DNA of 64,000 nucleotides from Candidatus Latescibacterota bacterium (GCA_963667175.2 CAXXXF010000004.1:18361-82360); one strand, 5' to 3'. Positions 47,471-60,862 are shown, counted from the first letter of the stretch. Notes: a model not told the origin generated them from the letters alone. Made by a program: numbers and translations.

Positions 47471-47769
47471 CAGCTATCAGCAGTCAGCCGTTAGCTTGAA
47501 GCAAGAGCGAAAATCGGCTCACACGGAGACACGAAGACACAAAGAAAACCAAAGGCTAAGATTCTGAAACACCGTTCAGGCGGACAACCACAAGGGTTGA
47601 CCCTACGAATACAATATGGACGCAGGCAGACGCGAATTTCGCGCGTTAAGGGTTTACCGTAACAAATCTCGCAAGACACCATCAAACGCACGATGGCGGT
47701 GCGGGGGAGAGGTTCCGCCTTTTGGTTTCAGGTTCAGGCTGACCGCTGATGGCTGATTGCTGACAGCTG
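47471..47769. mobile_element. MITE-like element, family B, carrying a nested REP hairpin
   Basis: Left CAGCTATCAGCAGTCAGCCGTTAGC. The reverse complement of the right end is CAGCTGTCAGCAATCAGCCATCAGCGGTCAGCC. A REP-like hairpin lies inside at 47582-47602. Confidence 0.55.
47582..47602. repeat. REP-like hairpin (GGACAACC-ACAAG-GGTTGACC)
   Basis: Same CCACAAGGG core as the other five copies. Confidence 0.55.
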
Positions 47770-47792
47770 TATTGACGCAAGGAGAAAACGAA

Positions 47793-50207
47793 ATGGTCCA
47801 GATGTCAGATACGACCGAACTGAAAGCCCCTTTCCTTCCGTCGGAAGAGAACGAACTCAGCCGGCGCTACCTGCGGATGATCGAGAAGTGGATTCCCACG
47901 GGAGTCGAGTATTTCCAGGAATGGCCGGACCGCCCGGACTGCGGGCACTTCTTCGGCGGCGTCCACTGGTATGGCGCCGAGACCACGTCGCCCGTGGAGA
48001 CGTTTGCCTTCGCCAGCATCTCGCCGGAGTACGACGAGAAAGGGGTCGGCGTCTCCCGGGACGACCTTCAGCGCATGGCGATTATGGGGCTGAGGTACCT
48101 TTGCTTCACGCACGACTCCGGGCCCCCGGACTGCGTCCGGCCCAGCGTGGGACTGGGACGTCCCGAGATCTGCGGTACCAAGTGGGGCGAACGCGGCCTG
48201 GGGTTCTTCAAGGAGAGCCAGTGCGGCCATGGGATCTCGACGCTGGCGCGGGTGTGTCTGTTGCTGCGGAACCGGATCGACGACGAGACGTGGATGATGA
48301 TGGCGCGCGTGCACGCGGACTATGCCGGCAGATTCGGGAACATGGCGCCGAAGAGCGGGATTTACGTGGATACGCAGATGGAGGAGAATGCCTGGACGTC
48401 CAACGGTTTGACCTCCTGCCATCTGTTTCTGGAGCGCCACGCAGACGCCGCCGAATGGGAGGCAACATGCAGGCGGTGGATGTACTCCACCTGCTCGGCG
48501 CCGCAGGACGCGAAGGACCGCGGCGCATTGGGCCGGACGACGGCGGCGGCGCTCGCGGGAAAGATATTTACCGCGTTGCCGGACTACTGGGCGGAAAACC
48601 ACGGGATGGTGCACCCGAACTACACCGCGTCGGGCGTCCGTCCGCTCAGTTCGGCGGGGGTGCAGTTGAAGCTGTGGGGCCGGGAACTGCCGCCGGAGTT
48701 GTTCTGGAACCGGCGCAGGGTGTACGAGAATCTCAAGGCGATGACCGACGGGTGGGGGTACGCCCAGGCCGTGCAGGGAATGGACTGGCATTATCTGCCT
48801 GCCGCCGGTAGCGAGAACCCGCATTCGGCGGCCGCCGTGTTCTTCGACGACGCGGATGCCGCCGCGCTTCTGCGCAGAGGGCTCCGGAACGCGGAACTGC
48901 GGCAGGATGGAAACGGCGGGCGGATGTACGACAGGGATTTCGCGGAACGGGCGCACGATCAGCAGGACCCCATGATCATGCGGGAAGTCACCATCAGCGC
49001 GGTTGCGCACCAGTACCTGTTCCACCGTTTGTTCGGACCTGGGCCGCCGCCCACCCCGGAAGACGAACTCGAGCGGCGACTGGCCGGGGTGCGTGAATAC
49101 CCGCACGCGGGTTTCGTCCATCACCGGCATCCGAAGGGACAGACCTCGTTTTCGTGGCGAAATTCCGTGATGGCAATGCCGCTGACCAGGGAGGGCATTT
49201 ACACGTTCGCGCCCTGTTCGGACAGCTGGTTGGGCAGGCCGGTGGTAAAGGGGCGCCCGGACAGCCATCGCCTGAAGCGGGCGCGCGTGACCGACTATGA
49301 CGACGGGTTTGCGGTGGCGATGACCATGGACCGGTGCCAGGAGTCATTGCGGCAGCAGGTGTTGTTCGCCAGCCTGCCGGATGGACGGACGCTGTCCTTC
49401 GAACGGTTCACGGCCCTGGAAGACCTGACGCTGGAATCGCTCGACCAGGGGTTTCTGCGGATTACCAATGAGCATTTCCCGCGGCTCGAACCGAACTGCA
49501 GAGGGGTCCGCACACTCTACAGACCCGATGGGTCGACCGACTACAAAGGCTGGCTCGGCGAACGTGAGGCCGAGGATATCGAGGATAGCCTCGGAAGGCC
49601 GGAATGGCTGAATGTCGACGACCGCCTGGGCATCGTTTTTTCGGCCACCGGCGAGGCGGGTTATCTGAATCGACACTACTATAAGCCGTATCGCGCGATC
49701 GCGGACGACCTCACGCTTTCGCGCCAGGCGGACGAGGAGGCGTTGCGCGCGGGCGAGGAAGCCGGGTCCCTTACGGCGTTGCTGATTCCCGAACAGACCC
49801 ACGAAGACACGCCTGCCAGCCGGCTCGACGTATTGACGGGGCCGGACGGGAGCGCCTGCCTGGTGACGGACGGGTACCTCGCGGCGGCGAATTTCGAGGA
49901 GAGACGCAAGGTTTGTACGTTTAAGCAGGCGCGGCAGGAGGACGTCCTCGTCTATTCCGGCGCAACGGTTGACGTGAACGGCGATGCTGTGCGCTATCGC
50001 GTGCCGCTCAACAGCCAGAGCGCGCGTCTGCTGGCCGGGACGGTTACACTGCGCGCGAATGGAGATATCAGGGCCGATGCCGCGCCCGGCGGCGAGGTCT
50101 ACGTGACGAACACCGATAGCGGTCAATCGGTCGTCGAAATCGCGAAGGGTGAAGGCGCAGGCACAGAGCATTCCGTCGACGCGGGGCAGACGATTCGCAT
50201 AGGATAG
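47793..50207 (+). CDS. Large conserved hypothetical protein, paralog 2 of 2
   Basis: 804 aa from ATG 47793 (AAGGAGAAAACGAA upstream). Colinear with 40779-43193 along the entire length. Confidence 0.8.
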   Translation: MVQMSDTTELKAPFLPSEENELSRRYLRMIEKWIPTGVEYFQEWPDRPDCGHFFGGVHWYGAETTSPVETFAFASISPEYDEKGVGVSRDDLQRMAIMGLRYLCFTHDSGPPDCVRPSVGLGRPEICGTKWGERGLGFFKESQCGHGISTLARVCLLLRNRIDDETWMMMARVHADYAGRFGNMAPKSGIYVDTQMEENAWTSNGLTSCHLFLERHADAAEWEATCRRWMYSTCSAPQDAKDRGALGRTTAAALAGKIFTALPDYWAENHGMVHPNYTASGVRPLSSAGVQLKLWGRELPPELFWNRRRVYENLKAMTDGWGYAQAVQGMDWHYLPAAGSENPHSAAAVFFDDADAAALLRRGLRNAELRQDGNGGRMYDRDFAERAHDQQDPMIMREVTISAVAHQYLFHRLFGPGPPPTPEDELERRLAGVREYPHAGFVHHRHPKGQTSFSWRNSVMAMPLTREGIYTFAPCSDSWLGRPVVKGRPDSHRLKRARVTDYDDGFAVAMTMDRCQESLRQQVLFASLPDGRTLSFERFTALEDLTLESLDQGFLRITNEHFPRLEPNCRGVRTLYRPDGSTDYKGWLGEREAEDIEDSLGRPEWLNVDDRLGIVFSATGEAGYLNRHYYKPYRAIADDLTLSRQADEEALRAGEEAGSLTALLIPEQTHEDTPASRLDVLTGPDGSACLVTDGYLAAANFEERRKVCTFKQARQEDVLVYSGATVDVNGDAVRYRVPLNSQSARLLAGTVTLRANGDIRADAAPGGEVYVTNTDSGQSVVEIAKGEGAGTEHSVDAGQTIRIG

Positions 50208-50342
50208 GAAAACGATATGGACGACGGTCTTTCCAAAGCGCGTTCATCGAGCTTGTCGAAATGTGCGCTTTGCAAGCCAGTCGGAGCGGGCTAAGCGAGC
50301 ACGCCATTTCCAGGTTGATTGACACGTCGGGGAGGTATTCTT

Positions 50343-52877
50343 GTGACCGATCAATGGATACTCGAGAACAACGCCCTCTGTCTGCAGTGGCAGAATGGGC
50401 ATCTGCAGGTGGAGAATCGGCTGTCGGGGTCGCGCCGCGCATTCGACTTTCCCGCGTTCATGATCCGTCTCGGCGACGTGGAGATTCCGGCGGACCTGTT
50501 TGTCCGGACCGATGTCGAACCCGGAAAGGACGGGATCGCGTTCGATTTTCGCCACGAAACCACGGGAATTCAGGCGCGCGTGCGCTACCGGATCGACGGA
50601 GACAACCCCTGGTTCAGAAAGCAGTTGACGCTTCATGCGCCGGACAGCCCGGGCGCGCCCACGCCGGACCGGCTCTGGGTGGACGTTCAGGACGGTCCTC
50701 CAAGGCCCATGAGACGCGTGGGATACGGTGTCCGCGGCGGGCCCGACGCGGAAGAGCAGACCGGGATCGACTCGTACGCACCCCCGGTACCGGGCTGCGG
50801 GTATCCGGTGTGGGCCGGAGACTGGTTTGCCGGGCTGGAGCATCCGGCGGGGTTTGCGGTTCCGGGCGACAGGCTTGAACTGTTTCACCACCCCGTGTGG
50901 GACGACGAACGGCGCATCGAGAGCTACACGGCGGTGTACGGCGCGGCAGAGAGCCACGAGGCCGTGCGAGGCGCATTCATGGACTACGTGTGGCAGATCC
51001 GCCTGCCCCGGCTGTCGAAGCCGATATTCCATCTTTCGGTGGGATGGTCGGTCCGTTATCTGGGCAACCGGGAGTATCTCGACTCGTTCGAAATGAACCA
51101 GGCCTACGTAGAGGCGGTATCGAATCTCGGTCTGAAGCCGGATTCCCTGGCGTTTGACGCCGGTTGGTTCGACAGGAAGTCGATTTACCGGCACAAGGGA
51201 GACGACGAGGACGATTCGCGGCTCATCGCGTTTTCCGAGGATCTGAAACAGAAGGGGTATTCGCTGGCGCTGTGGGTCACGCACAACGGTCCGGTGGGTT
51301 TCGACACCGATTGGATCCAGGAACAGGGATGGCGGGTTGGCGAAGGGCCCGGCTCGTACGGAAGCGGTACGTTCGTGGTGATGGCGCAGCCTTCCTTCGA
51401 AGAAGCGCTCGCCCGGCGCTGGGAGCGGCTGGTAGGAAAGGCGGGCGCGGTGCACCTGAAGATCGACTGGGACAACGAGTGCGCCACCCATCCCGATTTC
51501 GCGGAACGCTACCCGTCACCCCATCACATGCGCGAGGCGTCGGTGAACGCGTTCAACAGAATCGACCGTCGCCTTCGGGCCGTCAACCCGGACCTGGTGA
51601 CGCGGAACGGGTGGTGGCCGAGTCCCTGGTGGCTGTGCCTGGCGAACCACGTCTGGCTGATACACTCGGGAGACTGCGAATACGCGTCGTGGCCGTCTCG
51701 CACCCAACGCGACCGGGCCCTGACGCATCGGGACTCGGTCTATTACCAGATCATGCGCCGTGCGGAGACGCCGATCTTCTTCGACGCGTATGACAATCAC
51801 GAATTCGTGCAGGCCTTGACCAACGCGTTCGGCGATCCGCCCCATACATGGCTGGACAATCTGGTGTTGGCTTCCTGCCGCGGCACCACCTATATGCCGA
51901 TGCCGATCAATCCCGAAAGCCTGCGGGCGGACCGGGCCGAACAACTGCAGGCGATGATGGACTGGATGCGTTTCAACGCGGACGGACTGGGCACGAAGGA
52001 GACGCGCATGGTGCTTGGGAATCCGGCCTTCGGCGAAGTGTATGGCTTCCTGCATCCGTCGGAGGACAGCGCGTGGCTCCTGCTGCGAAATCCTTCCCCC
52101 GAACCGCAGGTCGTGGATCTCGGTCAGGAGGATGAATTGGGATATGCGCCGGGCACGGTTCGGCAGGTCTATCCCTTCTGGCAGGACCTGGAAGGGTCGA
52201 TGACGATATTGGGGAACGAAGTACGGTTGTTGAAATTCTTCGCCGACGCACAGGAGGACGCGTCACCGATACCCGGAGCGGCGTTCATGGCCCGGTTGTG
52301 CGATCAGGGATGCGAATACCGGTTTCCCGGCGACCGGCGGCTGACGGGCGACGTGGGGCCCGCGGTGCATCCGGACATGCAGATCCACGGGCTCTCCGCG
52401 GAGGCAACGGCCGACGAACGGAGTGACGGGACGCACCGGATGCAATGGTACGTTGCGGTTCCCCACCGATTCGAGCGGCCCGAATTCCAGGTTGTCCTGC
52501 GCGGTCCGGAGAAGGTGCTGGACGGCGTGGACGTCCGCGCCGGCGGATCGCGCTATCGTGGGGTACCGGCGAGATACGCCTACGAGACCCGGCGCATCCA
52601 CCGTCAGGGCCGAAGCAGCCACGGATCGGCCAGATTCCTGCCGCCCGTGGGTCCGAGGGAACGCGACGACTACCTGTTCACAATTCACGACAGCGGATGG
52701 GCATCGGTTACATTGGACGTTACCGGCGACGGTCTCGACGAACTGAAGGTGGAGGCTTGGGTCACCGGATACGAAGCGCCCGCCAGGCAGGCGATTGTCC
52801 AAGACGCACCGCCGATGCCCGGCGCCCTGCTTCCGGCGCATCCGTACGGGTTTTCGAGATGTCTGAGAATCAGGTGA
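50343..52877 (+). CDS. Alpha-galactosidase-like (GH clan D-like TIM barrel) protein
   Basis: 844 aa from GTG 50343 (GGAGG 7 nt upstream). FDAGWFDRK and LKIDWDNE resemble the DDGWF and KWDMN motifs of GH36/GH27 enzymes. The call is tentative. Confidence 0.6.
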   Translation: MTDQWILENNALCLQWQNGHLQVENRLSGSRRAFDFPAFMIRLGDVEIPADLFVRTDVEPGKDGIAFDFRHETTGIQARVRYRIDGDNPWFRKQLTLHAPDSPGAPTPDRLWVDVQDGPPRPMRRVGYGVRGGPDAEEQTGIDSYAPPVPGCGYPVWAGDWFAGLEHPAGFAVPGDRLELFHHPVWDDERRIESYTAVYGAAESHEAVRGAFMDYVWQIRLPRLSKPIFHLSVGWSVRYLGNREYLDSFEMNQAYVEAVSNLGLKPDSLAFDAGWFDRKSIYRHKGDDEDDSRLIAFSEDLKQKGYSLALWVTHNGPVGFDTDWIQEQGWRVGEGPGSYGSGTFVVMAQPSFEEALARRWERLVGKAGAVHLKIDWDNECATHPDFAERYPSPHHMREASVNAFNRIDRRLRAVNPDLVTRNGWWPSPWWLCLANHVWLIHSGDCEYASWPSRTQRDRALTHRDSVYYQIMRRAETPIFFDAYDNHEFVQALTNAFGDPPHTWLDNLVLASCRGTTYMPMPINPESLRADRAEQLQAMMDWMRFNADGLGTKETRMVLGNPAFGEVYGFLHPSEDSAWLLLRNPSPEPQVVDLGQEDELGYAPGTVRQVYPFWQDLEGSMTILGNEVRLLKFFADAQEDASPIPGAAFMARLCDQGCEYRFPGDRRLTGDVGPAVHPDMQIHGLSAEATADERSDGTHRMQWYVAVPHRFERPEFQVVLRGPEKVLDGVDVRAGGSRYRGVPARYAYETRRIHRQGRSSHGSARFLPPVGPRERDDYLFTIHDSGWASVTLDVTGDGLDELKVEAWVTGYEAPARQAIVQDAPPMPGALLPAHPYGFSRCLRIR

Positions 52878-52926
52878 AGGGACGCGTTACCCGGTTGTGG
52901 CTGGAGATCTGAAAGGAGACGTTGAA

Positions 52927-53805
52927 ATGACGCTGAGGCACGATGCGGAGCAGAACGTCTGGCACTTTGAGACGGAGCAGATGATAGGACACATTCAGCC
53001 GGACGGAGACCGGCACGGGATCAAGGAATTGACCCACAAACCCACCGGGGCTCAGGTGGCGCACCCGAAGTACGACCTCCTGAATCTGTTTTTCATGTTT
53101 TCGCAGAATCACTGCATGGGGCAGGCCCGGGAAAACGCGCGCAGCATCACGTCCGGGGGTAATGCGATCGACGTGCGCTGGACGCCGACGGACGATCACA
53201 AGGCGGAGATGACGGCCAGGTACGAAGTTGTCGAACCCAATGCGGTGGACCTGTCCATTACCGTGAAGTCCAACTGGCCCTACCCGGCGTACGAAGTGTT
53301 CCTGTCGAACTATTTCGATCTGTCGCTGCGGCCGTACGTTTACGTTCAGGGGAGCCCGTTCGATATTCCCGCGGACCGCGCGCGGTGGATCGCGCCGGAG
53401 GTGAACGACGTCTTCGTGGGAACGGGCCTGGTCTTCTCGAGGGACCAGCACGCAGCCAGGCGGTCGACCGACGGGCGATGGGACCGGATCTGGGGCCTCT
53501 ATCAGTGGAACCCGCAACGGTATTTCGAGGCGCCCGTGATCATGAGCGCGAACCTGGAGAAAGGCGTTGCGGGGGTGCTGATGTCGCGTCCCCAGGACTG
53601 CTACGCGGTGATCAGCGGGTACGCGAGCGAGAACATGAAGGACCCGTTCAGGGACCAGAACCCCCTCTACCTCTCGCTCTTCGGGGACGATTTCCGCGTT
53701 GGCGACGAGCGGACCGTGGAGGTCCGGTTCGCCGTCACCGAAATCGACGACTCGCTGTCCCAACCACTGGCGCTATACGAAGCGTTCATCGCGGAGAAAG
53801 GGTAA
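52927..53805 (+). CDS. Hypothetical protein (last gene of the high-GC cluster)
   Basis: 292 aa from ATG 52927 (AAGGAG upstream). Coding-like composition, no recognised motif. Confidence 0.65.
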   Translation: MTLRHDAEQNVWHFETEQMIGHIQPDGDRHGIKELTHKPTGAQVAHPKYDLLNLFFMFSQNHCMGQARENARSITSGGNAIDVRWTPTDDHKAEMTARYEVVEPNAVDLSITVKSNWPYPAYEVFLSNYFDLSLRPYVYVQGSPFDIPADRARWIAPEVNDVFVGTGLVFSRDQHAARRSTDGRWDRIWGLYQWNPQRYFEAPVIMSANLEKGVAGVLMSRPQDCYAVISGYASENMKDPFRDQNPLYLSLFGDDFRVGDERTVEVRFAVTEIDDSLSQPLALYEAFIAEKG

Positions 53806-54021
53806 GTGCGGGCGTGTACTGGCGGCCAAGATCCGGAGCCTGGCAAAGCGGGAGTGCGCCTTTCATTCGACAACAGACTCGCAGGGGAAGTCGTCTAACT
53901 CGACACTGACATGTAGGGCTGGTGCTGAAAGTAAGGCGCCGCGAACTCTCGAGGCCGTTGATGAGCAGGGAACATCCAGATGACTGATTTTCATCAAAGC
54001 AAAATAATTGTCAAAAAGCAA

Positions 54022-54050
54022 TTGATTTTCAAATGAGCAATGACTATATT
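54022..54050 (+). promoter_or_regulatory. Putative sigma70-type promoter of the Ubl operon (TTGATT-17 nt-TATATT)
   Basis: TTGATT at 54022-54027, an exact 17-nt spacer, TATATT at 54045-54050, in an AT-rich tract 40 nt upstream of the Ubl start. A direct repeat TGATTTTCA (53985-53993 and 54023-54031) overlaps the -35. Confidence 0.5.
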
Positions 54051-54089
54051 TCTACTACAAACAACAACCATCTACCAAAGGAGAGAGAA

Positions 54090-54359
54090 ATGACTGCTAA
54101 AGACACCGTAGCAGAGGACATTCGGCTCAAGACCGTTACCATTGAAGTCAACGACCACAAGGTCGAGATGCATGCAGGACCAGCGACGGGATTTGAGATC
54201 AAAGAGGCCGCCATCAAGCAGGGCGTAAGTATTCAGCTGAACTTCGTGCTGCAGGTCCAGTTGCCGAATGGATCGAGCAAGGTGATCGGCAACGACGACA
54301 AGGTGCCATTGACCGAACATCTCGCCTTCACCGCCATCGCTGCGGATGATAACAGTTGA
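54090..54359 (+). CDS. Ubiquitin-like beta-grasp protein ('Multiubiquitin'-family, single domain)
   Basis: 89 aa from ATG 54090 (AAAGGAGAGAG RBS; ATG 54033 would lie upstream of the predicted -10). VTIEVNDHKVEMHAGPATGFEIKEAAIKQGV.IQLNFVL...NGSSKVIGNDDKVPL fits my memory of the family that accompanies prokaryotic E2/E1/JAB genes. It ends ...AIAADDNS, with no GG. Confidence 0.65.
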   Translation: MTAKDTVAEDIRLKTVTIEVNDHKVEMHAGPATGFEIKEAAIKQGVSIQLNFVLQVQLPNGSSKVIGNDDKVPLTEHLAFTAIAADDNS

Positions 54360-54380
54360 CCGTAACAGTAAGGACGCACC

Positions 54381-54767
54381 GTGAAGCAGGATGTCGCTAA
54401 CGCGATCGAGGAACTGAAGCGGGCACTTCCGTCTTCGGATGTGCGCAGTAGCGAGGACGGAAGTGGGGGTGCATACGTTGTCGTCGAACCCGTCCACATA
54501 GGGGAACGATATAGGCCTTCATCTACATGGATAGGGGGCCACATCACGGCCCTCTATCCGTACGCCGACATCTACCCTCTGTTTATCGGCGACAACGTGT
54601 GTCGCGTGGACGGCGTGGCCTTTGAGCCGCCAGTAACTGCCGGCGCTCAGTTTTTCGACCGGCCGGCCCTGCAGGTTTCTCGGCGCAACAATCATACTCA
54701 GAACTACCCTCAGGCGGCGGTGGCCAAATTCCTCAAAGTACTGCATTTCCTTAAGGAACTCCAATGA
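54381..54767 (+). CDS. Prokaryotic E2-like protein (family E type)
   Basis: 128 aa, GTG start with AAGGA upstream, sandwiched between the Ubl and E1 genes. UBC-like size. The only Cys is at ...FIGDNVCRVDG. Assignment rests on context plus memory of Prok-E2_E. Confidence 0.6.
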   Translation: MKQDVANAIEELKRALPSSDVRSSEDGSGGAYVVVEPVHIGERYRPSSTWIGGHITALYPYADIYPLFIGDNVCRVDGVAFEPPVTAGAQFFDRPALQVSRRNNHTQNYPQAAVAKFLKVLHFLKELQ

Positions 54768-56131
54768 AACGGGAGTCGTGCGACATCCTGGTGACTTCCG
54801 AGTATCACCAGCGAATCATGGAGCATCTGTTTCCCGGCGACCGCGACGAGTACGGTGCGATTCTGCGCGCTGGCGTCGTTCGCAACGGGTCGACTATGCG
54901 CCTGCTGATTCAACATGTTCAGCCAGCGGAGTTTGGTACCGACTACGTCGCGGGCCAATACGGCTACCGGGCGCTTACTCCAACTTTCATTCACAGAGAA
55001 ATCCTCCAGTGCAGAGACTTGGGCTTAGCCTACCTTGCTGTTCACAATCACGGAAGCGGCCGGAGGGTTGATTTCAGCAGCGTCGATATAGAATCCCACG
55101 AACGCGGTTATCCCGCACTCCTAGACATTGGCCGTGGGGTTCCGGTTGGCGCTTTGGTGTACGGTCGGCGCTCGGTCGCCGCAGATATCTGGCTGCCGGA
55201 TGGCAGCCGTCGATCGCTCGGGACCTATCAGATCATCGGTGACAAGATTACGAGGCTTTACACCAAACCCCGCCGAGTGCGTGGGTCGAACAGCGAGCAC
55301 GATCGCCAAGTGCGCATGTTCGGTGCGGCTGGACAACAGATCCTGAAAGTGAGCAAGGTGGCTGTCGTTGGGCTCGGAGGGGTCGGTTCGCTAGTGGCGG
55401 AATACCTTGCTAGACTTGGGGTTGGGAACCTCGTACTCATCGATCCGGACGAAATTGAGAAAAGCAACCTTTCTCGCGTGGTTGGCGCGACCCCGGTTGA
55501 CGTCGAAATGGGCCAGCTCAAGACACAGATCGCGGTTCGTCATGCACGCGAGATGGCGGTTGATGCCACGCTTCAGCCGGTCGCGGCCGACGTTTCGCGT
55601 CAGTCCGTCGCCCGAGTTCTGCGCGATTGTGACTTCATATTCCTGGCCGCAGACTCCATGCGAGCTAGGCTCGTCGTCAATGCTCTTGCCCACCAGTACC
55701 TCATTCCGACGATTCAATTGGGCGCAAAGATACGTCCAGGGCATCGTGGCAAGCTCGAAGATGCCATGTGTGCGGTACGACATATCAGGCCAGGCACCGG
55801 ATGCCTTTGGTGCAATGAACTGATTGATCCGATGCAACTCGCGGTCGAAGCGAAGTCTGACAGGGAACGCACGGAACAGGCTTACGGAGTTCAGGAAGCC
55901 AACCCTAGCGTGATCACGTTGAACGCTGTCGCGGCCGCACATGCGGTCAATGATTTCCTATTTGACTTCCTGGGGCTCCGATCCGGTGAAGTGGAAGCAG
56001 GTTATCAGCACATCCATTTTCATCGTGGCAAGTTACAACGTGTTATTCCGCGTCGCGATCCGGAATGCAGGGAATGTGTCCACAGACTAGCCATGGGTGA
56101 CGCGCTCGAACTTCCGGTAATGGAGGGATAA
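54764..56131 (+). CDS. JAB/JAMM-domain - ThiF/E1-like adenylyltransferase fusion protein
   Basis: 455 aa with ATGA overlap with the E2 stop. N-terminal JAMM-like residues (DEYGAIL; AVHNHGSGRRVDFSSVD). The ThiF half has VAVVGLGGVGSLVAEYLARLGVGNLVLIDPD, LSR, FLAADSM..R, and CLWC...CREC. Confidence 0.85.
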   Translation: MKRESCDILVTSEYHQRIMEHLFPGDRDEYGAILRAGVVRNGSTMRLLIQHVQPAEFGTDYVAGQYGYRALTPTFIHREILQCRDLGLAYLAVHNHGSGRRVDFSSVDIESHERGYPALLDIGRGVPVGALVYGRRSVAADIWLPDGSRRSLGTYQIIGDKITRLYTKPRRVRGSNSEHDRQVRMFGAAGQQILKVSKVAVVGLGGVGSLVAEYLARLGVGNLVLIDPDEIEKSNLSRVVGATPVDVEMGQLKTQIAVRHAREMAVDATLQPVAADVSRQSVARVLRDCDFIFLAADSMRARLVVNALAHQYLIPTIQLGAKIRPGHRGKLEDAMCAVRHIRPGTGCLWCNELIDPMQLAVEAKSDRERTEQAYGVQEANPSVITLNAVAAAHAVNDFLFDFLGLRSGEVEAGYQHIHFHRGKLQRVIPRRDPECRECVHRLAMGDALELPVMEG

Positions 56132-56225
56132 CGTGGTATCGAAGATGCTTGGCAGGTCGTGGCGGATTGGATAAGTCGAGAGTGTTGTAACCCCATTCGG
56201 CTACCGACCACAAGGGATACAGCCA

Positions 56226-56585
56226 ATGACTCAGCGTCTGAACTTCGACTTTGAAGCCTTCTACAGGGCACTAAGCACGACCGTGACGGCTCGAGAAGTC
56301 AGTTGGAAAGCTGTAAGCGAGCAGACTGGCGTCTCTCAGTCCACGTTGTCCAGGATGTCGAAGGGGCGGCAACCGGATGCCGCCAGCCTGACGGCGCTGT
56401 GCGCATGGTCGGGCCTCAACCCCGTGGATTTCACGACGGCGCCGAAGAACAACCCTGAACCCGTTGCCACGGTAACTAGGCTGCTCCGTGCAGACCCGAA
56501 CCTCAATAAGGACGGCGCGGATGCGTTAGAGGCCATCATCACGGCGGCCTACGAAAGGCTTAAACGGCCGTCGTCAGATCTCTAA
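56226..56585 (+). CDS. XRE-family helix-turn-helix transcriptional regulator
   Basis: 119 aa. HTH VSWKAVSEQTGVSQSTLSRMSKGRQP. Confidence 0.8.
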   Translation: MTQRLNFDFEAFYRALSTTVTAREVSWKAVSEQTGVSQSTLSRMSKGRQPDAASLTALCAWSGLNPVDFTTAPKNNPEPVATVTRLLRADPNLNKDGADALEAIITAAYERLKRPSSDL

Positions 56586-56782
56586 TCTTGCTTGTCCTTG
56601 TCCGCCTGAGACGGCTTTGATGCGGCAATTCGCAGTTCGGCAGCCAATTCCTCACGCTCTCGGATGCTCTTAGCGATTTCCGGGACGGCTTGTTCCATCT
56701 CTTGGCGCAAGTCATCGAGCATGGCTTGGTCCTCCGTTGCCGGGCTGAATTTCCCCAAGTATTCCTTGAACTTTTGGTTCAT
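56582..56782 (-). CDS. Small charged coiled-coil protein (66 aa), translationally coupled to the peptidase gene
   Basis: The ATG overlaps the upstream stop (ATGA) and GGAGGAGAGGA lies immediately upstream. MNQKFKEYLGKF...REREELAAELRIAAS...DKDKQD. No homolog recognised. Confidence 0.55.
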   Translation of the reverse strand: MNQKFKEYLGKFSPATEDQAMLDDLRQEMEQAVPEIAKSIREREELAAELRIAASKPSQADKDKQD

Positions 56783-58302
56783 TCCTCTCCTCCAGTTTCT
56801 GCGGCTACTTCGCTCGTACTCGTGGATGCCGGTGATTCGTGGACCGGACGAAGATTGAGCTCGATCCGTGGTAGAGGTCCGAGGTTTGTGCGACTGAGGC
56901 GGATGGATGTGGGTTTCATCTCTGCCGACGTCCGATCGAAGACGTGCGCCACTTCCTCATCATGTAACAACCAGATCGGTACTTTGTCCGTTGGACTCGC
57001 GGTAGCGTCTACGATCGCCCTTGCGGCAACGTGCCCGGCTTGCCATTGCGCGACGCTGCAGTACTCGACAACCCACACGAATTTAGCCGTGTCTAAATGC
57101 ATCAATAGACCGACGAGGCCGTCGCCGAGATTCGTGCGGTAGTTGCGTGCATGCTCACGAAGATTGGAGACCGTCGTGATGAAATAACGCCGTAACTCGA
57201 GCGGCTCCTGATCTGGTCCGCGCGCACGTCCCAAGGATCCCTCGACTCGTTGGCTCAAGGCGTCTATAGCATCGGCGGGGTAGAAGATTTTGTCAGGCAA
57301 TGCAACGATGAACGCCTCGAACGAGTCGGCGGAATACGACGTCTGTCCGGCTTGGGTTCCGTGCAAGTTTAGCGGAACGGTAGCATAGGGAAGTAGGTTG
57401 TCGTCCACGGTCAGCAGTGTTTCAACTTGCGTCCAGACATGCGATAAAGAAGCCTGCTGTGGTATTGCGGTTTGCTTCCAATTGTGGCCGACGATGACTA
57501 CGGCGTGGGTCTCGCTGGGCATGGCAACGAACAACGGGAAACCCGATTCCAGATAGGCAAGCAACTGGGAGAAAAACGCCGCGTCGGAAGCGGAATTACG
57601 CTTGCCGACGAGCAACGGGAAACAGCCAGCCGCCTGAAATACACGTTCAGCTTCCAAGACATTGAAGCCAAGTGACGGCACCAATCCGCCAGGGTCGAAC
57701 GGGGCGACGAGCTTTGTTACGTCGTGGACGAGATACTCACGATGTCGCGAATATGTCTCGCTGTAATATCGAAGAACAGCCCAGCAAGCCACATGGGCGC
57801 ACACTGCAATGTCAACATGCTGGGCCATCGAGGGGAACCCCCATACGGGTAATCGATGACCAAGCAGGTTGACGTGGTGAACTGACTGAATTGCCCTACC
57901 ACGCGCGCCTAACCGAATGTCGGGAGAGAGCACGGATCGCCCTAACGTGGCGACGATAGTCGGCCTTAACACGATGTATCCGAAGTAATGGTCTTGCGGG
58001 TGGCCGTCATTAGCCACGATATCGGCCAGATCTTCGTCATACCTAACCGTTCCGTCGAAGAAGTGCAGACGGACACAATCTGGGCGGTACTGCCGGCCCT
58101 TCTTAGCATAGAAATTATAGAACGTGCTACGATAATCCTTGTCGACGTATCCGTGCTCGACAAGCAATCCCTTGACAGCGTCTGTTACCTGAGTTTTGAG
58201 ACGCTGGGCGATGTCCTTGGGATCGAATTCCGGTTCTATCACGTCGATAAGACGGTCGTACTTCTTGGGGGAGTCGAGATCGATCCAATCGTAGGAAGCC
58301 AA
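56779..58302 (-). CDS. Papain-fold (C39-like) cysteine peptidase domain protein with unassigned N- and C-terminal domains
   Basis: 507 aa, TTG start (GGGGA upstream). Central SMAQHVDIAVCAHVACWAVLRYY (Gln...Cys nucleophile pattern) and SETHAVVIVGHNW (His). Confidence 0.6.
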   Translation of the reverse strand: MASYDWIDLDSPKKYDRLIDVIEPEFDPKDIAQRLKTQVTDAVKGLLVEHGYVDKDYRSTFYNFYAKKGRQYRPDCVRLHFFDGTVRYDEDLADIVANDGHPQDHYFGYIVLRPTIVATLGRSVLSPDIRLGARGRAIQSVHHVNLLGHRLPVWGFPSMAQHVDIAVCAHVACWAVLRYYSETYSRHREYLVHDVTKLVAPFDPGGLVPSLGFNVLEAERVFQAAGCFPLLVGKRNSASDAAFFSQLLAYLESGFPLFVAMPSETHAVVIVGHNWKQTAIPQQASLSHVWTQVETLLTVDDNLLPYATVPLNLHGTQAGQTSYSADSFEAFIVALPDKIFYPADAIDALSQRVEGSLGRARGPDQEPLELRRYFITTVSNLREHARNYRTNLGDGLVGLLMHLDTAKFVWVVEYCSVAQWQAGHVAARAIVDATASPTDKVPIWLLHDEEVAHVFDRTSAEMKPTSIRLSRTNLGPLPRIELNLRPVHESPASTSTSEVAAETGGEE

Positions 58303-58672
58303 TGTGATTATTCCCCGTCTGCTGTTTCGCCCGAGAAAGAGACCGTCACCTGGTTCTCATAGTTTAAAACCCCACGAAATCGGCGGCATGGACCGAAAAC
58401 TCCGAATCCGGCGCGCGGTTTCTTCTGGCATGGCGCCTGCTGGGACACCAAGTCGATGAGGCACTGCTCGCTTTCCTCGACATACCACCTGGAGGTACCC
58501 GGCCGCGTCCGCTGTTACAGTGTGGTGCGATCTTTTTCAGACGACAATATTGAACGCGCGGGGAATGGAATGCCCCCATAATAGGTTGGAGCAGGAGATA
58601 ATGCAACCGAGCACTTGACTGAGGCCGCTCCGCGAAGCTCCCGGAAACACTGCGCCTGTTCACCCATTAATT

Positions 58673-59443
58673 CTAAGGCATCCAGATGTTCCACCTGCCG
58701 TATTTTTCCCAGATTCGGCAAGTGTCGCACGTGCACATCCACCGGAGCGCGAAACGCGGTTTGCGGCCTGTATTGAGCGATCCGGCGTGTACCAGCAGAT
58801 AGTGAAAGAAGAGCACATCTCCCCGCGAAGGCCGGATCTCGATCGGTTCTCCCAGATCGAACTTCCGCGTCGGGTTCTGGAAATCAGGCAGCATGCGAAA
58901 CCGTTCGGGATCCCGCGCCGCCGCCTCGCCGAGCGTCCGGTGCGACCCGGGCCAGACCACGGTCCCGCCGCCCTGCGCGGCGCCGGAATCGAGATAGGTC
59001 AGGGACGAGACGCGGAATGACCCCGGAAAGACGTTGAACGGTCGATGTTGGCCATCGGCATGCCCGCTGTGATGATTCCAGCTATCCGAAACCGGAAAGA
59101 CACTGCGTGTCCAGACTGCCTCCGGCTCTGACTTCCGGCAGTGAAATGCATCCGCGTTTTCCCGGGCAAGTTGGCTCTGCGCTTCCTGGAATGCAGGAGT
59201 CCAACAGGCCATCATCGCGGGATCATCGAGTCCGAAGTGTTCAATCACCCCCTGGCTGGCGACGGTCGTCACCCCATCTGAATCGTCCGGCAAAGGAGAC
59301 CACGAATCCCGATTGTCCCGGTCCATCCCAAGAACAGACCACATCGCCGCCTCCGCATCGGCAAGGGTCTCTTCCGGAATCAGTCGCGACACCAGCACGA
59401 ACCCATCCCGGTGATATTTCGACAATTGTTCCTGTGAAAGCAT
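58673..59443 (-). CDS. Phytanoyl-CoA dioxygenase (PhyH) family protein
   Basis: 256 aa, GGGAG RBS. YHRDGFVLV, GHADG, WPGSH, LVHAGS. Confidence 0.8.
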   Translation of the reverse strand: MLSQEQLSKYHRDGFVLVSRLIPEETLADAEAAMWSVLGMDRDNRDSWSPLPDDSDGVTTVASQGVIEHFGLDDPAMMACWTPAFQEAQSQLARENADAFHCRKSEPEAVWTRSVFPVSDSWNHHSGHADGQHRPFNVFPGSFRVSSLTYLDSGAAQGGGTVVWPGSHRTLGEAAARDPERFRMLPDFQNPTRKFDLGEPIEIRPSRGDVLFFHYLLVHAGSLNTGRKPRFALRWMCTCDTCRIWEKYGRWNIWMP

Positions 59444-59480: not shown

Positions 59481-59784
59481 TTTCAATTTCATCAAGTTCC
59501 CGGCGTCACAATCTGTTCTAACCCTTGAGACACGTTTTATTGCCCGCCTTCAAGTCGGGTAATCGACCACTCAACGTTTGCTTGGTTTCCGACATCTTTG
59601 CTGTAACTCGATTTACTCACGATGTGCGGTTGTCAGGGATATCGTTGATTTTGGCTGTCATTCATCGATCTCGCCTGCGTTTGGTGACGGGATCCAGTAC
59701 CTGAAGAATTCGGTGTTTTCTATAGATTTCGCTGTTGGGCTCGGTTCACTCAGCATACATCTCGGTTTTTTGACATAGATTGTA

Positions 59785-60219
59785 TCACTTCAATCGTTTT
59801 ACCCGGATTGCTTTGTCGATTCCGTCAACTTTCATCTTGTACGATCCGCCCGACTTATAGATCAGAACTTTAGGCGTATAGGAATAATGATATGTATAAT
59901 AATACTCGTCTTGTTGCCATATTTGTCCGTTCCACAGTTTGACTATTGTCTCGCCATCCCATCCTTCAAAAGATCCGTCAATCTTGGATTCTATAACGCT
60001 TCCCGTTGAACTATTCTCCTGCTGGATAAACTTAAGGAGCAGATTGACAATGTATGCACGAAGAAGCTCTCGTTCGTGGGATGATAGCTTATGCAATCCC
60101 ATTTTCTTCTGATCTGACTTGGAAATGAGTTGGTCAAGGTTAGGTTTCTGCGGTTTTTCTGCGAACGCCGTTCCCTGAAGAAACAAAACGATCACTACAA
60201 AAAGTGTGGTCGGATTCAT
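59785..60219 (-). CDS. Secreted hypothetical protein (signal peptide; low GC)
   Basis: 144 aa, GGGGGA RBS. N-terminus MNPTTLFVVIVLFLQGTAFA-EKP. C-terminus is a Tyr/Trp-rich beta-type domain (GSFEGWDGETIVKLWNGQIWQQ...YKMKVDG...). Confidence 0.65.
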   Translation of the reverse strand: MNPTTLFVVIVLFLQGTAFAEKPQKPNLDQLISKSDQKKMGLHKLSSHERELLRAYIVNLLLKFIQQENSSTGSVIESKIDGSFEGWDGETIVKLWNGQIWQQDEYYYTYHYSYTPKVLIYKSGGSYKMKVDGIDKAIRVKRLK

Positions 60220-60862
60220 GTGGTCCCCCGATTACCGGTCCGAAATGAAAAAACTCGCGTTGAATTGTATCTGTACATAATCTGGTTGTCAAGTAACGAC
60301 GCAATTGCTAATTGAGAAATTCGGACAATCGGAAGAAAGGGCATGGTCGCGGAGATTCGGAGCGCGAGCGCATCTTTGTTGTCTGTTCTTCCGAAAGGTA
60401 CGAGGTTGAAGAAACAGATGTTGTGTGTCTAAGGACCCGAATTGACTGCATCGCGAATGCAATCGTATTCACAACAGAGATTTCGTGTGAATTAGGCCAG
60501 ATTCAATAGTGAATTTGGCTTATTTTTTGTAGATTATCTCATTGTGAATGTCTTCGTCTGAAAGGCTGAGACCTTCCACCACCTCGCGACGTTTTTGAAA
60601 AATCCGTACACATTAAACGGAGCGCAAGGTAGAAGGGAAAGATACCAAGAGTGCTGCTCAGAAGCCAGTTGAAGGCGGTAAGGAAGCAAAAGACTATTGG
60701 AAGCGACGTTCTCACGTAGACGGGCAACGTCCTCATCAAATGAGATTTCGCGGCGACGGTCGGTGTGCCGAACTTTCATGCAATGCGATCTCAGGCTCCG
60801 ATTATTACGCGACCCAATGCGGGAAAGACCCTAGCGGAATGGCAGTTAAAAGAGAGTAACCA

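Follow-up and report, generated by a model that had tools for sequence, protein, structure and literature searches.

We analyzed a 64,000-nucleotide (nt) stretch of DNA from a Candidatus Latescibacterota bacterium (GCA_963667175.2 CAXXXF010000004.1:18361-82360), hereafter the window, which carries a compact six-gene cassette. Open reading frame (ORF) calls placed genes for a ubiquitin-like protein (Ubl), an E2-like protein, a JAB-E1 fusion protein and an XRE regulator on the plus strand, and genes for two accessory proteins, p66 and p507, on the minus strand. The cassette is probably a diverged and horizontally mobile member of the Bub family of bacterial ubiquitination-like systems, working by the mechanism proposed below. 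The family is not categorically new; the window holds a coherent, widespread and unannotated lineage of it with its own partners and its own operator.

A preliminary description of this DNA had reported three tightly packed plus-strand ORFs followed by an XRE gene. All four were found where it had placed them (Table 1), as were the ATGA overlap between the second and third genes, the ribosome-binding site (RBS) AAGGAGAGAGAAATG upstream of the Ubl start and the AIAADDNS end of the Ubl. The Ubl and E2 ORFs lie in one frame in the window, parted by TGA-CCG-TAA-CAG-TAA, which holds 3 stop codons, and an AAGGA RBS precedes the GTG start of the E2 gene. An alternative ATG for the Ubl gene at 54033 lies upstream of the -10 box and, therefore, 54090 is the true Ubl start. 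The p66 and XRE genes converge with a 4-bp overlap at their stop codons, and p66 is translationally coupled to the 507-amino acid (aa) gene. The drop in GC content noted earlier was also observed, with a fraction of 0.50 at 53750-54500 and 0.57-0.59 over the operon, compared to 0.60-0.67 upstream.

Table 1. Genes and regulatory features of the cassette, in window coordinates.
Feature	Coordinates	Strand	Description
Ubl gene (BubA-like)	54090..54359	+	89 aa; single domain; C-terminus D-D-N-S-stop
Standalone E2-like gene (BubB-like)	54381..54767	+	128 aa; GTG start
JAB-E1 fusion gene (BubCD-like)	54764..56131	+	455 aa; ATGA overlap with E2 gene
XRE/Cro-C1-type helix-turn-helix (HTH) regulator gene	56226..56585	+	119 aa
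p66 gene, small conserved protein	56582..56782	-	66 aa; ATGA overlap with p507 stop codon
p507 gene, accessory protein	56779..58302	-	507 aa; candidate papain-like Cys peptidase core with N- and C-terminal flanking domains
Operator-promoter	54008..54050	+	palindrome abutting -35, 17-nt spacer, -10

Operons of this general kind are on record as group 6e of Iyer, Burroughs & Aravind (2006, Genome Biol 7:R60), with a polyUbl or solo Ubl, a Cys-less E2/RWD-like protein and a JAB-E1 protein. In that paper, the Ubl and E2 are separate or fused, one solo Ubl is recorded, and row 6e of Table 1 calls the E2-like domain "inactive E2-/RWD like". The name Bub was given to the "6E/DUF6527" operons by Ye, Gong, Chambers and Corbett, and solved structures and a reconstitution are on record for a Type I system of Citrobacter (10.1101/2024.11.21.623953; PDB 9ea4 and related). 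In Type I, a Ubl-E2 fusion (BubAB) that the JAB domain cuts after a conserved Gly is accompanied by BubCD (JAB-E1) and by the DUF6527 Ser-His protease BubE, whereas Type II is made up of BubA, BubBD and BubE (10.1101/2024.11.21.623953). Conjugation proceeds through oxyester intermediates on a Tyr of the E1 crossover loop and on an E2 Ser (with His and Asp), and the catalytic Ser of Citrobacter BubB is essential (10.1101/2024.11.21.623953). The preliminary description had assigned the window operon to the least characterized branch of such systems, which no longer holds now that 6E has been named Bub and its Citrobacter Type I member solved (10.1101/2024.11.21.623953). It had also allowed that the architecture might belong to a system already characterized; the family does, whereas the exact architecture differs.

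The whole 455-aa protein matched Citrobacter BubCD in PDB (9ea4/9ea5/9eav; E 2.7e-31, residues 8-400), and its C-terminal half matched Pfam ThiF (E 5.6e-40). The motifs DEYGAIL, HNHGSGRRVDFSSVD, GLGGVGS and CLWC...CREC, from which the fusion had been recognized earlier, are present and align with the catalytic residues of the solved BubCD. We aligned 35 JAB-E1 orthologues, spanning the window protein to canonical BubCD at 27% identity. Residues E29, H94, H96, S105 and D108 of the JAB domain, R238 of the adenylation domain and Y374 of the crossover loop were invariant in all 35. A CxxC...CxxC pattern (the Zn motifs CLWC and CREC in the window) was kept in 33 of the 35, including canonical CIAT894, and is therefore not distinctive of the clade. 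The JAB half alone had no match in Pfam, NCBIfam, PADLOC or PDB sequence searches, even at E 10; it is identified as JAB because the whole protein matches BubCD. The E1 half also resembles MccB and PaaA (PDB, E 1.7e-10 and 2e-8), and the ThiF domain matches the PADLOC Cap2 "E1-E2" models through the adenylation domain alone. A PADLOC run, as had been suggested for this contig, did not recognize the system.

The Ubl matched Pfam Multi_ubiq (PF14452) directly (E 5.8e-7; 30.1 bits versus a gathering cut-off of 24.5). When a profile of the window Ubl family was compared to PDB, it matched a rice HMA-like protein (E 7e-4) and, weakly, the E. coli ZDHYS365 multi-ubiquitin protein BubA (9cd2, E 0.042), and it had no match to the Citrobacter BubA domain. 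The Ubl and the E2-like protein are encoded by separate genes in 30 of 30 related loci and in 3 plasmids, with spacers of 4-21 nt and differing relative frames, and the RBS ahead of the E2 gene is conserved across the related loci. The separation of the two genes is genuine and goes back to the ancestor of a large clade. Recoding of stop codons at the Ubl/E2 junction was considered and ruled out by the 3 stops of two kinds and by the different frames between loci.

Since the two ORFs share a frame in the window with only stops between them, and no DUF6527 gene was found, the locus could be read as a decayed Type I operon in which nonsense mutations broke the BubAB fusion and BubE was lost, leaving it non-functional or heading to a pseudogene. 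That reading is hardly credible. The split is common to more than 400 homologues from many phyla, with frames and spacers that vary and an RBS that is conserved; all catalytic residues are invariant; and plasmids of cultured Rhizobium, Mesorhizobium and Nostoc carry the genes in this arrangement too. The proteins are also 80-90% identical across phyla, which indicates purifying selection and recent transfer of a working unit. Conservation has already effectively refuted decay.

The most interesting testable point of the lineage is a Ubl with an invariant C-terminal serine. DDNS-stop closes the Ubl in nearly every related locus at Ubl identities of 39-100% (one locus has DDDS), and also in the plasmid operons of Rhizobium ruizarguesonis, Mesorhizobium sp. 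AR07 and Nostoc sp. ATCC 53789. In fused relatives, DDNS stands at the junction of the Ubl with a short variable linker, beyond which lies the E2 domain. The wider Ubl family, fused forms included, shows no variation at Asp86 and Ser89, whereas Asn88 does vary. The Ubl of canonical BubAB ends in ...TTTEG (Rhizobium sp. CIAT894) or ...EQTDG (Mesorhizobium NZP2077), and in an alignment anchored on the conserved F-x-[AG]-I strand Ser89 aligns with this terminal Gly. The Gly/Ser alignment was taken from canonical plasmid BubAB sequences because the Ubl profile missed the Citrobacter BubA domain. Judged from these sequences, the Ser89 C-terminus is the putative reactive end of the Ubl.

We know of no E1-conjugated Ubl that ends in Ser, and the preliminary description had proposed that the fused JAB domain processes the tail before adenylation. 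The Ubl would then be a precursor, and removal of DDNS or part of it would expose another C-terminal residue to the E1. Consistent with this proposal, the JAB residues are fully conserved where there is no fused Ubl-E2 to cleave, and in Citrobacter it is this domain that matures the Ubl (10.1101/2024.11.21.623953). However, the length of the DDNS tail is constant over the whole range of Ubl identity, the variable linker of the fused relatives starts right after DDNS, Ser89 coincides with the canonical Gly after which BubCD cuts, and it is Asp86 and Ser89 that are invariant and not Asn88. Precursor tails, by comparison, are usually variable. Trimming is, therefore, not favored and we regard it as unlikely.

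Homologues of the E2-like protein numbered 410, the best 120 of which were all 127-128 aa. An exhaustive search of 1.84 billion representatives returned 201 relatives, and 82 of these made up the family alignment. The window protein alone had no match in Pfam, NCBIfam, PADLOC or PDB, even at E 10. At the level of the family, Pfam Prok-E2_E was matched by 26 of the 82 representatives and Multi_ubiq by 7 longer, fused members, and the top match of the family profile in PDB was Citrobacter BubB, weakly (E 0.31). Alignment of the family to the canonical BubB E2 domain with hhalign gave a probability of 94.4% (E 9e-8), with S100 aligned to the catalytic Ser. Thus, of the profile matches anticipated for the two small ORFs, that of the Ubl was obtained directly and that of the E2-like protein at family-profile level, not directly. 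Taken together, the Multi_ubiq match, the Prok-E2_E/BubB family link and the BubCD/ThiF matches uphold the identification of the core as Ubl, E2 and JAB-E1.

Ser100, in the sequence Q-V-S-R-R, is invariant in the 82 representatives, Arg101 is nearly so, and Ser100 is the candidate catalytic residue of the E2-like protein. The family motif is Q-x-S-R-[R/K], compared to Q-R-W-S-R-H in canonical BubB. Position 102 is R in 55 representatives, K in 11 and another residue in the others, and it is His in none of the 82. D63 (73 of 82) is nearby, and its equivalence to canonical D299 is uncertain. A YPYADIYP flap is present in the window protein. The AlphaFold2 model had a predicted local distance difference test score (pLDDT) of 47, from a shallow alignment of 18 sequences at approximately 80% identity, and was unusable. 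An inverted repeat with 14-nt arms, CACTTCCGTCTTCG and CGAGGACGGAAGTG, lies at 54424-54465 in the 5' part of the E2 gene; the arms are 93% complementary and separated by 14 nt, and the repeat could be an mRNA hairpin or a chance occurrence.

The E2-like protein has no Cys at the E2 catalytic position and no His of the Ser-His pair, and the E1 half resembles MccB and PaaA, which act on non-Gly C-termini. These features, and the label "inactive E2-/RWD like" in the part of Iyer et al. (2006, Genome Biol 7:R60) that lists the 6e domains, fit a non-catalytic RWD-like adaptor. The E1 would in that case activate the Ubl for self-modification or for small-molecule or peptide chemistry of the MccB/PaaA kind. 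However, all 82 representatives have Ser100, which aligns with the Ser that Citrobacter BubB requires, the crossover Tyr of the E1 that is needed for hand-off is invariant, and the Ubl is a full beta-grasp domain and not a short peptide. We consider an adaptor role quite improbable.

The window locus has a JAB-E1 that agrees with that of Type I Bub in length and domain arrangement and retains all the catalytic residues, including the crossover-loop Tyr. It also shares a Multi_ubiq-type Ubl, an E2 of the Prok-E2_E/BubB lineage with an invariant Ser for the catalytic Cys, the gene order Ubl, E2, JAB-E1, and an associated, presumed HTH repressor. In contrast, the Ubl and E2 are separate genes and not a BubAB fusion, the Ubl ends in Ser (DDNS) instead of Gly, the E2 has S-R-R/K instead of S-R-H, no BubE/DUF6527 was found, p66 and p507 are extra partners, and identity of the JAB-E1 to Citrobacter and other canonical BubCD is only approximately 27-32%. 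The locus, therefore, departs from Type I in four defining features: it has no Ubl-E2 fusion, no terminal Gly and no Ser-His dyad, and no BubE was found. With Type II it shares a standalone Ubl gene, a predicted Ser-based E2 chemistry and the crossover-loop Tyr. Type II differs in that its E2 is fused to the E1, usually without JAB, whereas in the window JAB is on the E1, the E2 is free and BubE was not found.

Relative to the 6e operons, a Ubl, an E2-like protein and a JAB-E1 are common to both. The metal-binding protein Y of 6e (now DUF6527/BubE) was not found in the window, and neither the DDNS terminus nor a p507 partner is mentioned in the available portions of that account (Iyer 2006, Genome Biol 7:R60). 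Bil (BilABCD) and Cap2/Cap3 of Type II CBASS (cyclic oligonucleotide-based antiphage signaling system) follow a shared logic, in which E1, E2 and JAB conjugate a protein C-terminus to targets in conflict systems. However, they use Cys thioesters, separate JAB proteins and a Gly (or Ala) C-terminus, and the cassette has no CD-NTase or BilA-type Ubl and matches them through the adenylation domain alone. A literature search on the Pfam names returned eukaryotic ubiquitin papers only. The Bub subtype of the window is undescribed in the literature, supplementary Table S1 of the Bub paper lying outside that comparison.

BubE/DUF6527 had no match in the scanned neighbor ORFs (XRE, p66, p507, PhyH and a 144-aa ORF). 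A tblastn search with CIAT894 BubE returned nothing credible in the window or in the related loci L001-L033, with a sensitivity that is limited for a protein of approximately 95 aa; the same query does recover a Planctomycete homologue (E 8.5e-11). None of the three plasmid relatives has DUF6527 annotated in its operon. Because DUF6527-containing operons were the starting point of the published Bub catalogue, a lineage with no BubE was missed. A separate observation was made on a plasmid of Mesorhizobium sp. NZP2077 (L034), where canonical BubAB-BubCD is followed by Tn7-like TniQ/TniB in place of BubE, which suggests that BubE was lost there by transposon insertion.

That the JAB residues are invariant where there is no fusion to cut indicates that the domain is still under selection. 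With no Ubl-E2 fusion present and no BubE found, JAB most likely removes the Ubl from targets and would act as a deconjugase for recycling or proofreading.

The operon had been predicted to have its own promoter, and a promoter scan bore this out. The sigma-70-like promoter TTGATT-17-TATATT has its -35 at 54022-27 and its -10 at 54045-50 and is conserved in 20 related loci. The palindrome TTGTCAAAAAGCAATTG at 54008-54024 (consensus AATTGY-N6-GCAATT) abuts the -35, and in the related loci the palindrome likewise abuts a -35 of TTGAC(A/T), followed by 17 nt and a TAnnnT -10. The sequence TTGY-N6-GCAATTG occurs exactly once per locus in 20 of 20 loci, approximately 70 nt 5' of the Ubl gene, wherever the XRE gene lies. 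A single match in the window alone is not significant, and the argument for an operator is, therefore, one of positional conservation. The operator-promoter forms the left end of the cassette, where DNA similarity across phyla sets in. No conserved operator was seen upstream of p507.

The XRE protein matched Pfam HTH_26 (E 2.6e-5) and also HTH_31 and HTH_3, and its gene is conserved together with the core in 27 loci, lying downstream of it or upstream in divergent orientation. The XRE protein may be a repressor that acts at the putative operator palindrome. It is 44% identical to the regulator of a SAR202 genome (L025), which is paired there with a Peptidase_M78 gene (E 7e-17), and HTH and ImmA/IrrE pairs in a CapH/CapP-like arrangement occur in the Rhizobium p4 and Nostoc relatives. 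The CapH/CapP arrangement responds to DNA damage (10.1101/2024.11.21.623953; PMC13373217). No M78 peptidase is present in the cassette, which thus lacks a pairing of the CapH/CapP type although the XRE HTH is present.

Downstream of the XRE gene, the preliminary description had placed a convergent protease operon and a STAND NTPase. The convergent 66-aa and 507-aa genes are there, the protease part is weakly supported, and no ORF of the size of a STAND NTPase lies within approximately 6 kb downstream. p507 has more than 1000 homologues, all of them unnamed, without a Pfam domain and without a sequence match in PDB, and Pfam scans of divergent p507 homologues also gave no match. Residues Q161, C168, H266 and D301 are invariant in the alignment, in the order of a papain-like catalytic set; C168, H266 and D301, but not C173, are kept in a 529-aa Mesorhizobium homologue (hidden Markov model [HMM] E 7.7e-44). 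Peptidase_C39_2 was weakly matched by 4 of 18 p507 orthologues (best E 0.047). The p507 model had a pLDDT of 64, and of less than 50 in the Cys region. Foldseek returned weak matches (E >= 0.1), mostly from the papain superfamily (calpain, staphopain, IdeS, phytochelatin synthase and a Josephin-type deubiquitinase), and no significant match was obtained for the model in the PDB and viral structure libraries. On balance, p507 appears somewhat more apt to have a papain-like Cys peptidase core than to lack one. p66 is conserved in most cassette copies (34-94% identity), with no Pfam, PADLOC or NCBIfam match and no detectable relatives outside the cassette.

p507 is not constant in the lineage. 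Two gammaproteobacterial copies have an internal stop in p507 with the core intact (L016, 8050-9555; L020, 8059-9546), in L015 (7999-8970) the p507 match is limited to residues 172-492, and the relatives in Rhizobium, Nostoc, SAR202 and actinomycetes lack p507. These relatives carry other large neighbors (an NTase-conflict protein or an unrelated 562-aa protein) or an M78 peptidase, and p507 and M78 never co-occurred in the loci examined. Being absent or interrupted in relatives, p507 belongs to an accessory module that is not essential to the core. Our tentative preference is that it serves as a variable partner with an effector or sensor role. It is less likely to be a CapP-like protease that acts on XRE or, to the same extent, a deconjugase in place of BubE. 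As side observations, Ubl, E2 and E1 are intact in some gammaproteobacterial and spirochaete copies whose accessory block is damaged, and L010 (7803-8642) has approximately 840 bp of extra sequence between XRE and p66.

The relatives whose core stands without p507 and the internal stops in L016 and L020 would also be expected if XRE, p66 and p507 were an independent module, such as a toxin-antitoxin pair or a separate defense unit, that hitch-hikes beside the Ubl operon, and the block is transcribed convergently to the core. Against this, all six genes lie in one tightly bounded cross-phylum cassette, and the XRE/p66/p507 block is still kept in L019 and L022-L024, where it sits on the opposite side of the core, upstream of it and in divergent orientation. 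A p507 homologue again adjoins a DDNS-type core in a distant Mesorhizobium (HMM E 7.7e-44), and the conserved operator is ahead of the Ubl gene and not of p507. An independent module is, in our view, rather unlikely.

Relatives of the JAB-E1 with 79-91% protein identity were found in genomes labeled Latescibacterota, Gemmatimonadota, Acidobacteriota (Terriglobia, Vicinamibacteraceae), Spirochaetia and Chloroflexota, and the copies in Gammaproteobacteria were 66-73% identical. The cassette DNA is 72-92% identical across at least 5 phyla. Nucleotide similarity across phyla runs from approximately 54002 to approximately 58300-58350 with unrelated flanks, and these limits (approximately 54002 to approximately 58350) define a shared unit of approximately 4.35 kb. 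The six genes are co-conserved down to approximately 45-55% identity. The interior of the cassette holds no integrase or transposase, and no terminal direct or inverted repeats flank it. Several hosts are sponge symbionts, with three host metagenome-assembled genomes (MAGs) in bin series from the sponges Ircinia ramosa and Aplysina aerophoba (SB0662, SB0676, APA), and 8 of the JAB-E1 host genomes are single-chromosome assemblies. Errors of MAG binning were considered as a source of the cross-phylum identity and were ruled out by these 8 hosts, in which the flanks are unrelated. Horizontal acquisition of the cassette is strongly supported, and the cassette clearly illustrates recent transfer between phyla within symbiont communities.

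The preliminary description had suggested a horizontally acquired defense or stress module. Its acquisition is borne out by the boundaries and the cross-phylum identity, and the anti-phage role is one of guilt by association. On plasmid pNsp_c of Nostoc sp. ATCC 53789 (L033), the DDNS operon lies beside PIN, DUF499 and DUF1156 genes and a convergent gene for an unrelated 562-aa protein, and on p4 of Rhizobium ruizarguesonis (L031) its neighbors are an N-6 DNA methylase gene and the gene for a 520-aa "NTase-conflict" protein (Pfam E 6e-35). Both strains are cultured and would be handy sources for experiments. The conflict-system context in cultured relatives also includes an AbiEi gene and CapH/CapP-like regulators, and an anti-phage dCTP deaminase adjoins the canonical operon. 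These neighbors in cultured relatives suggest a conflict or stress function.

Starting from the observed gene anatomy, homology, residue conservation, co-transfer and operator conservation, and with the chemistry drawn by homology from Citrobacter Bub, we propose that the cassette would work as follows. XRE would repress the operon through the palindrome overlapping the -35, and a stress or infection signal would relieve the repression. The E1 half would adenylate the Ser89 carboxylate of the Ubl with no prior processing. Tyr374 would take the Ubl as an oxyester and hand it to Ser100 of the E2, where Arg/Lys102 would stand in for His, and the E2 would move the Ubl onto lysines of target proteins. 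JAB could then reverse the modification, and p507/p66 may serve as a variable accessory module, whether effector or sensor, XRE-inactivating protease or second deconjugase. Going further, the lineage might be a third, mechanistically distinct Bub type that conjugates a Ser end, uses JAB as the deconjugase in place of BubE, and links to an effector or regulatory output through variable partners (here a novel Cys peptidase and p66), with its recent spread across at least 5 phyla, sponge symbionts among them, resulting from strong selection in dense host-associated communities through phage defense or another conflict. We put this forward as a possibility, somewhat short of an even chance.

Several points weigh against reading the cassette as a working Bub system of this kind. 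A UBC fold of the 128-aa protein is suggested from profile-level homology alone, the protein having no direct match in Pfam or PDB. With Arg/Lys in place of the His of the canonical S-x-H, catalysis may be different or weaker. A Ser terminus has, to our knowledge, no precedent among E1-conjugated Ubls, and a retained, active JAB could mean tail trimming. The interrupted, partial and absent copies of p507 described above count on the same side. Finally, as of 2026 no phage protection had been shown for Bub, and its role is undemonstrated even for the canonical systems (PMC13373217).

Biochemical characterization of bacterial ubiquitination-like systems dates only from 2023-2026. The window E2 is recognized by no model in Pfam, NCBIfam or PADLOC, and the Ubl by none in PADLOC. 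If the Ser C-terminus is conjugated, E1-activated Ubls would be less strictly bound to a terminal glycine, and the lineage would be a natural test of how an E1 pocket, a JAB peptidase and an oxyester relay cope with a side chain at the Ubl terminus. With its tight boundaries, its conserved operator and copies that are nearly identical between unrelated phyla, the cassette is a convenient unit for heterologous study.

Some further features were observed in the flanks. Upstream, 47757-53805 holds three consecutive large plus-strand ORFs (816, 852 and 302 aa) 5' of the cassette; their orthologues in L001 and L002 have no Pfam family, and the ORFs are part of a host-specific flank outside the cassette. 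Downstream, a PhyH-family (phytanoyl-CoA dioxygenase-like) gene at 58673-59443 flanks the cassette, as it does in L001-L006. There are two or three PhyH paralogues in L001 and L002, and the gene is outside the region shared across phyla. In the close relatives L001 (6889-8031) and L002 (7452-8042), DDE_5 and DDE_Tnp_1 transposases and small ORFs lie between the PhyH and Ubl genes, and the transposases beside the cassette mark an insertion hot spot. Beyond the cassette and the PhyH gene, a second and deeper low-GC stretch (0.42-0.45) extends over 59500-60750. It contains an ORF of 144 aa on the minus strand (59785-60219), whose product is hydrophobic at the N-terminus and has no Pfam match, and ORFs of at least 100 aa are few from 60.2 to 64 kb.

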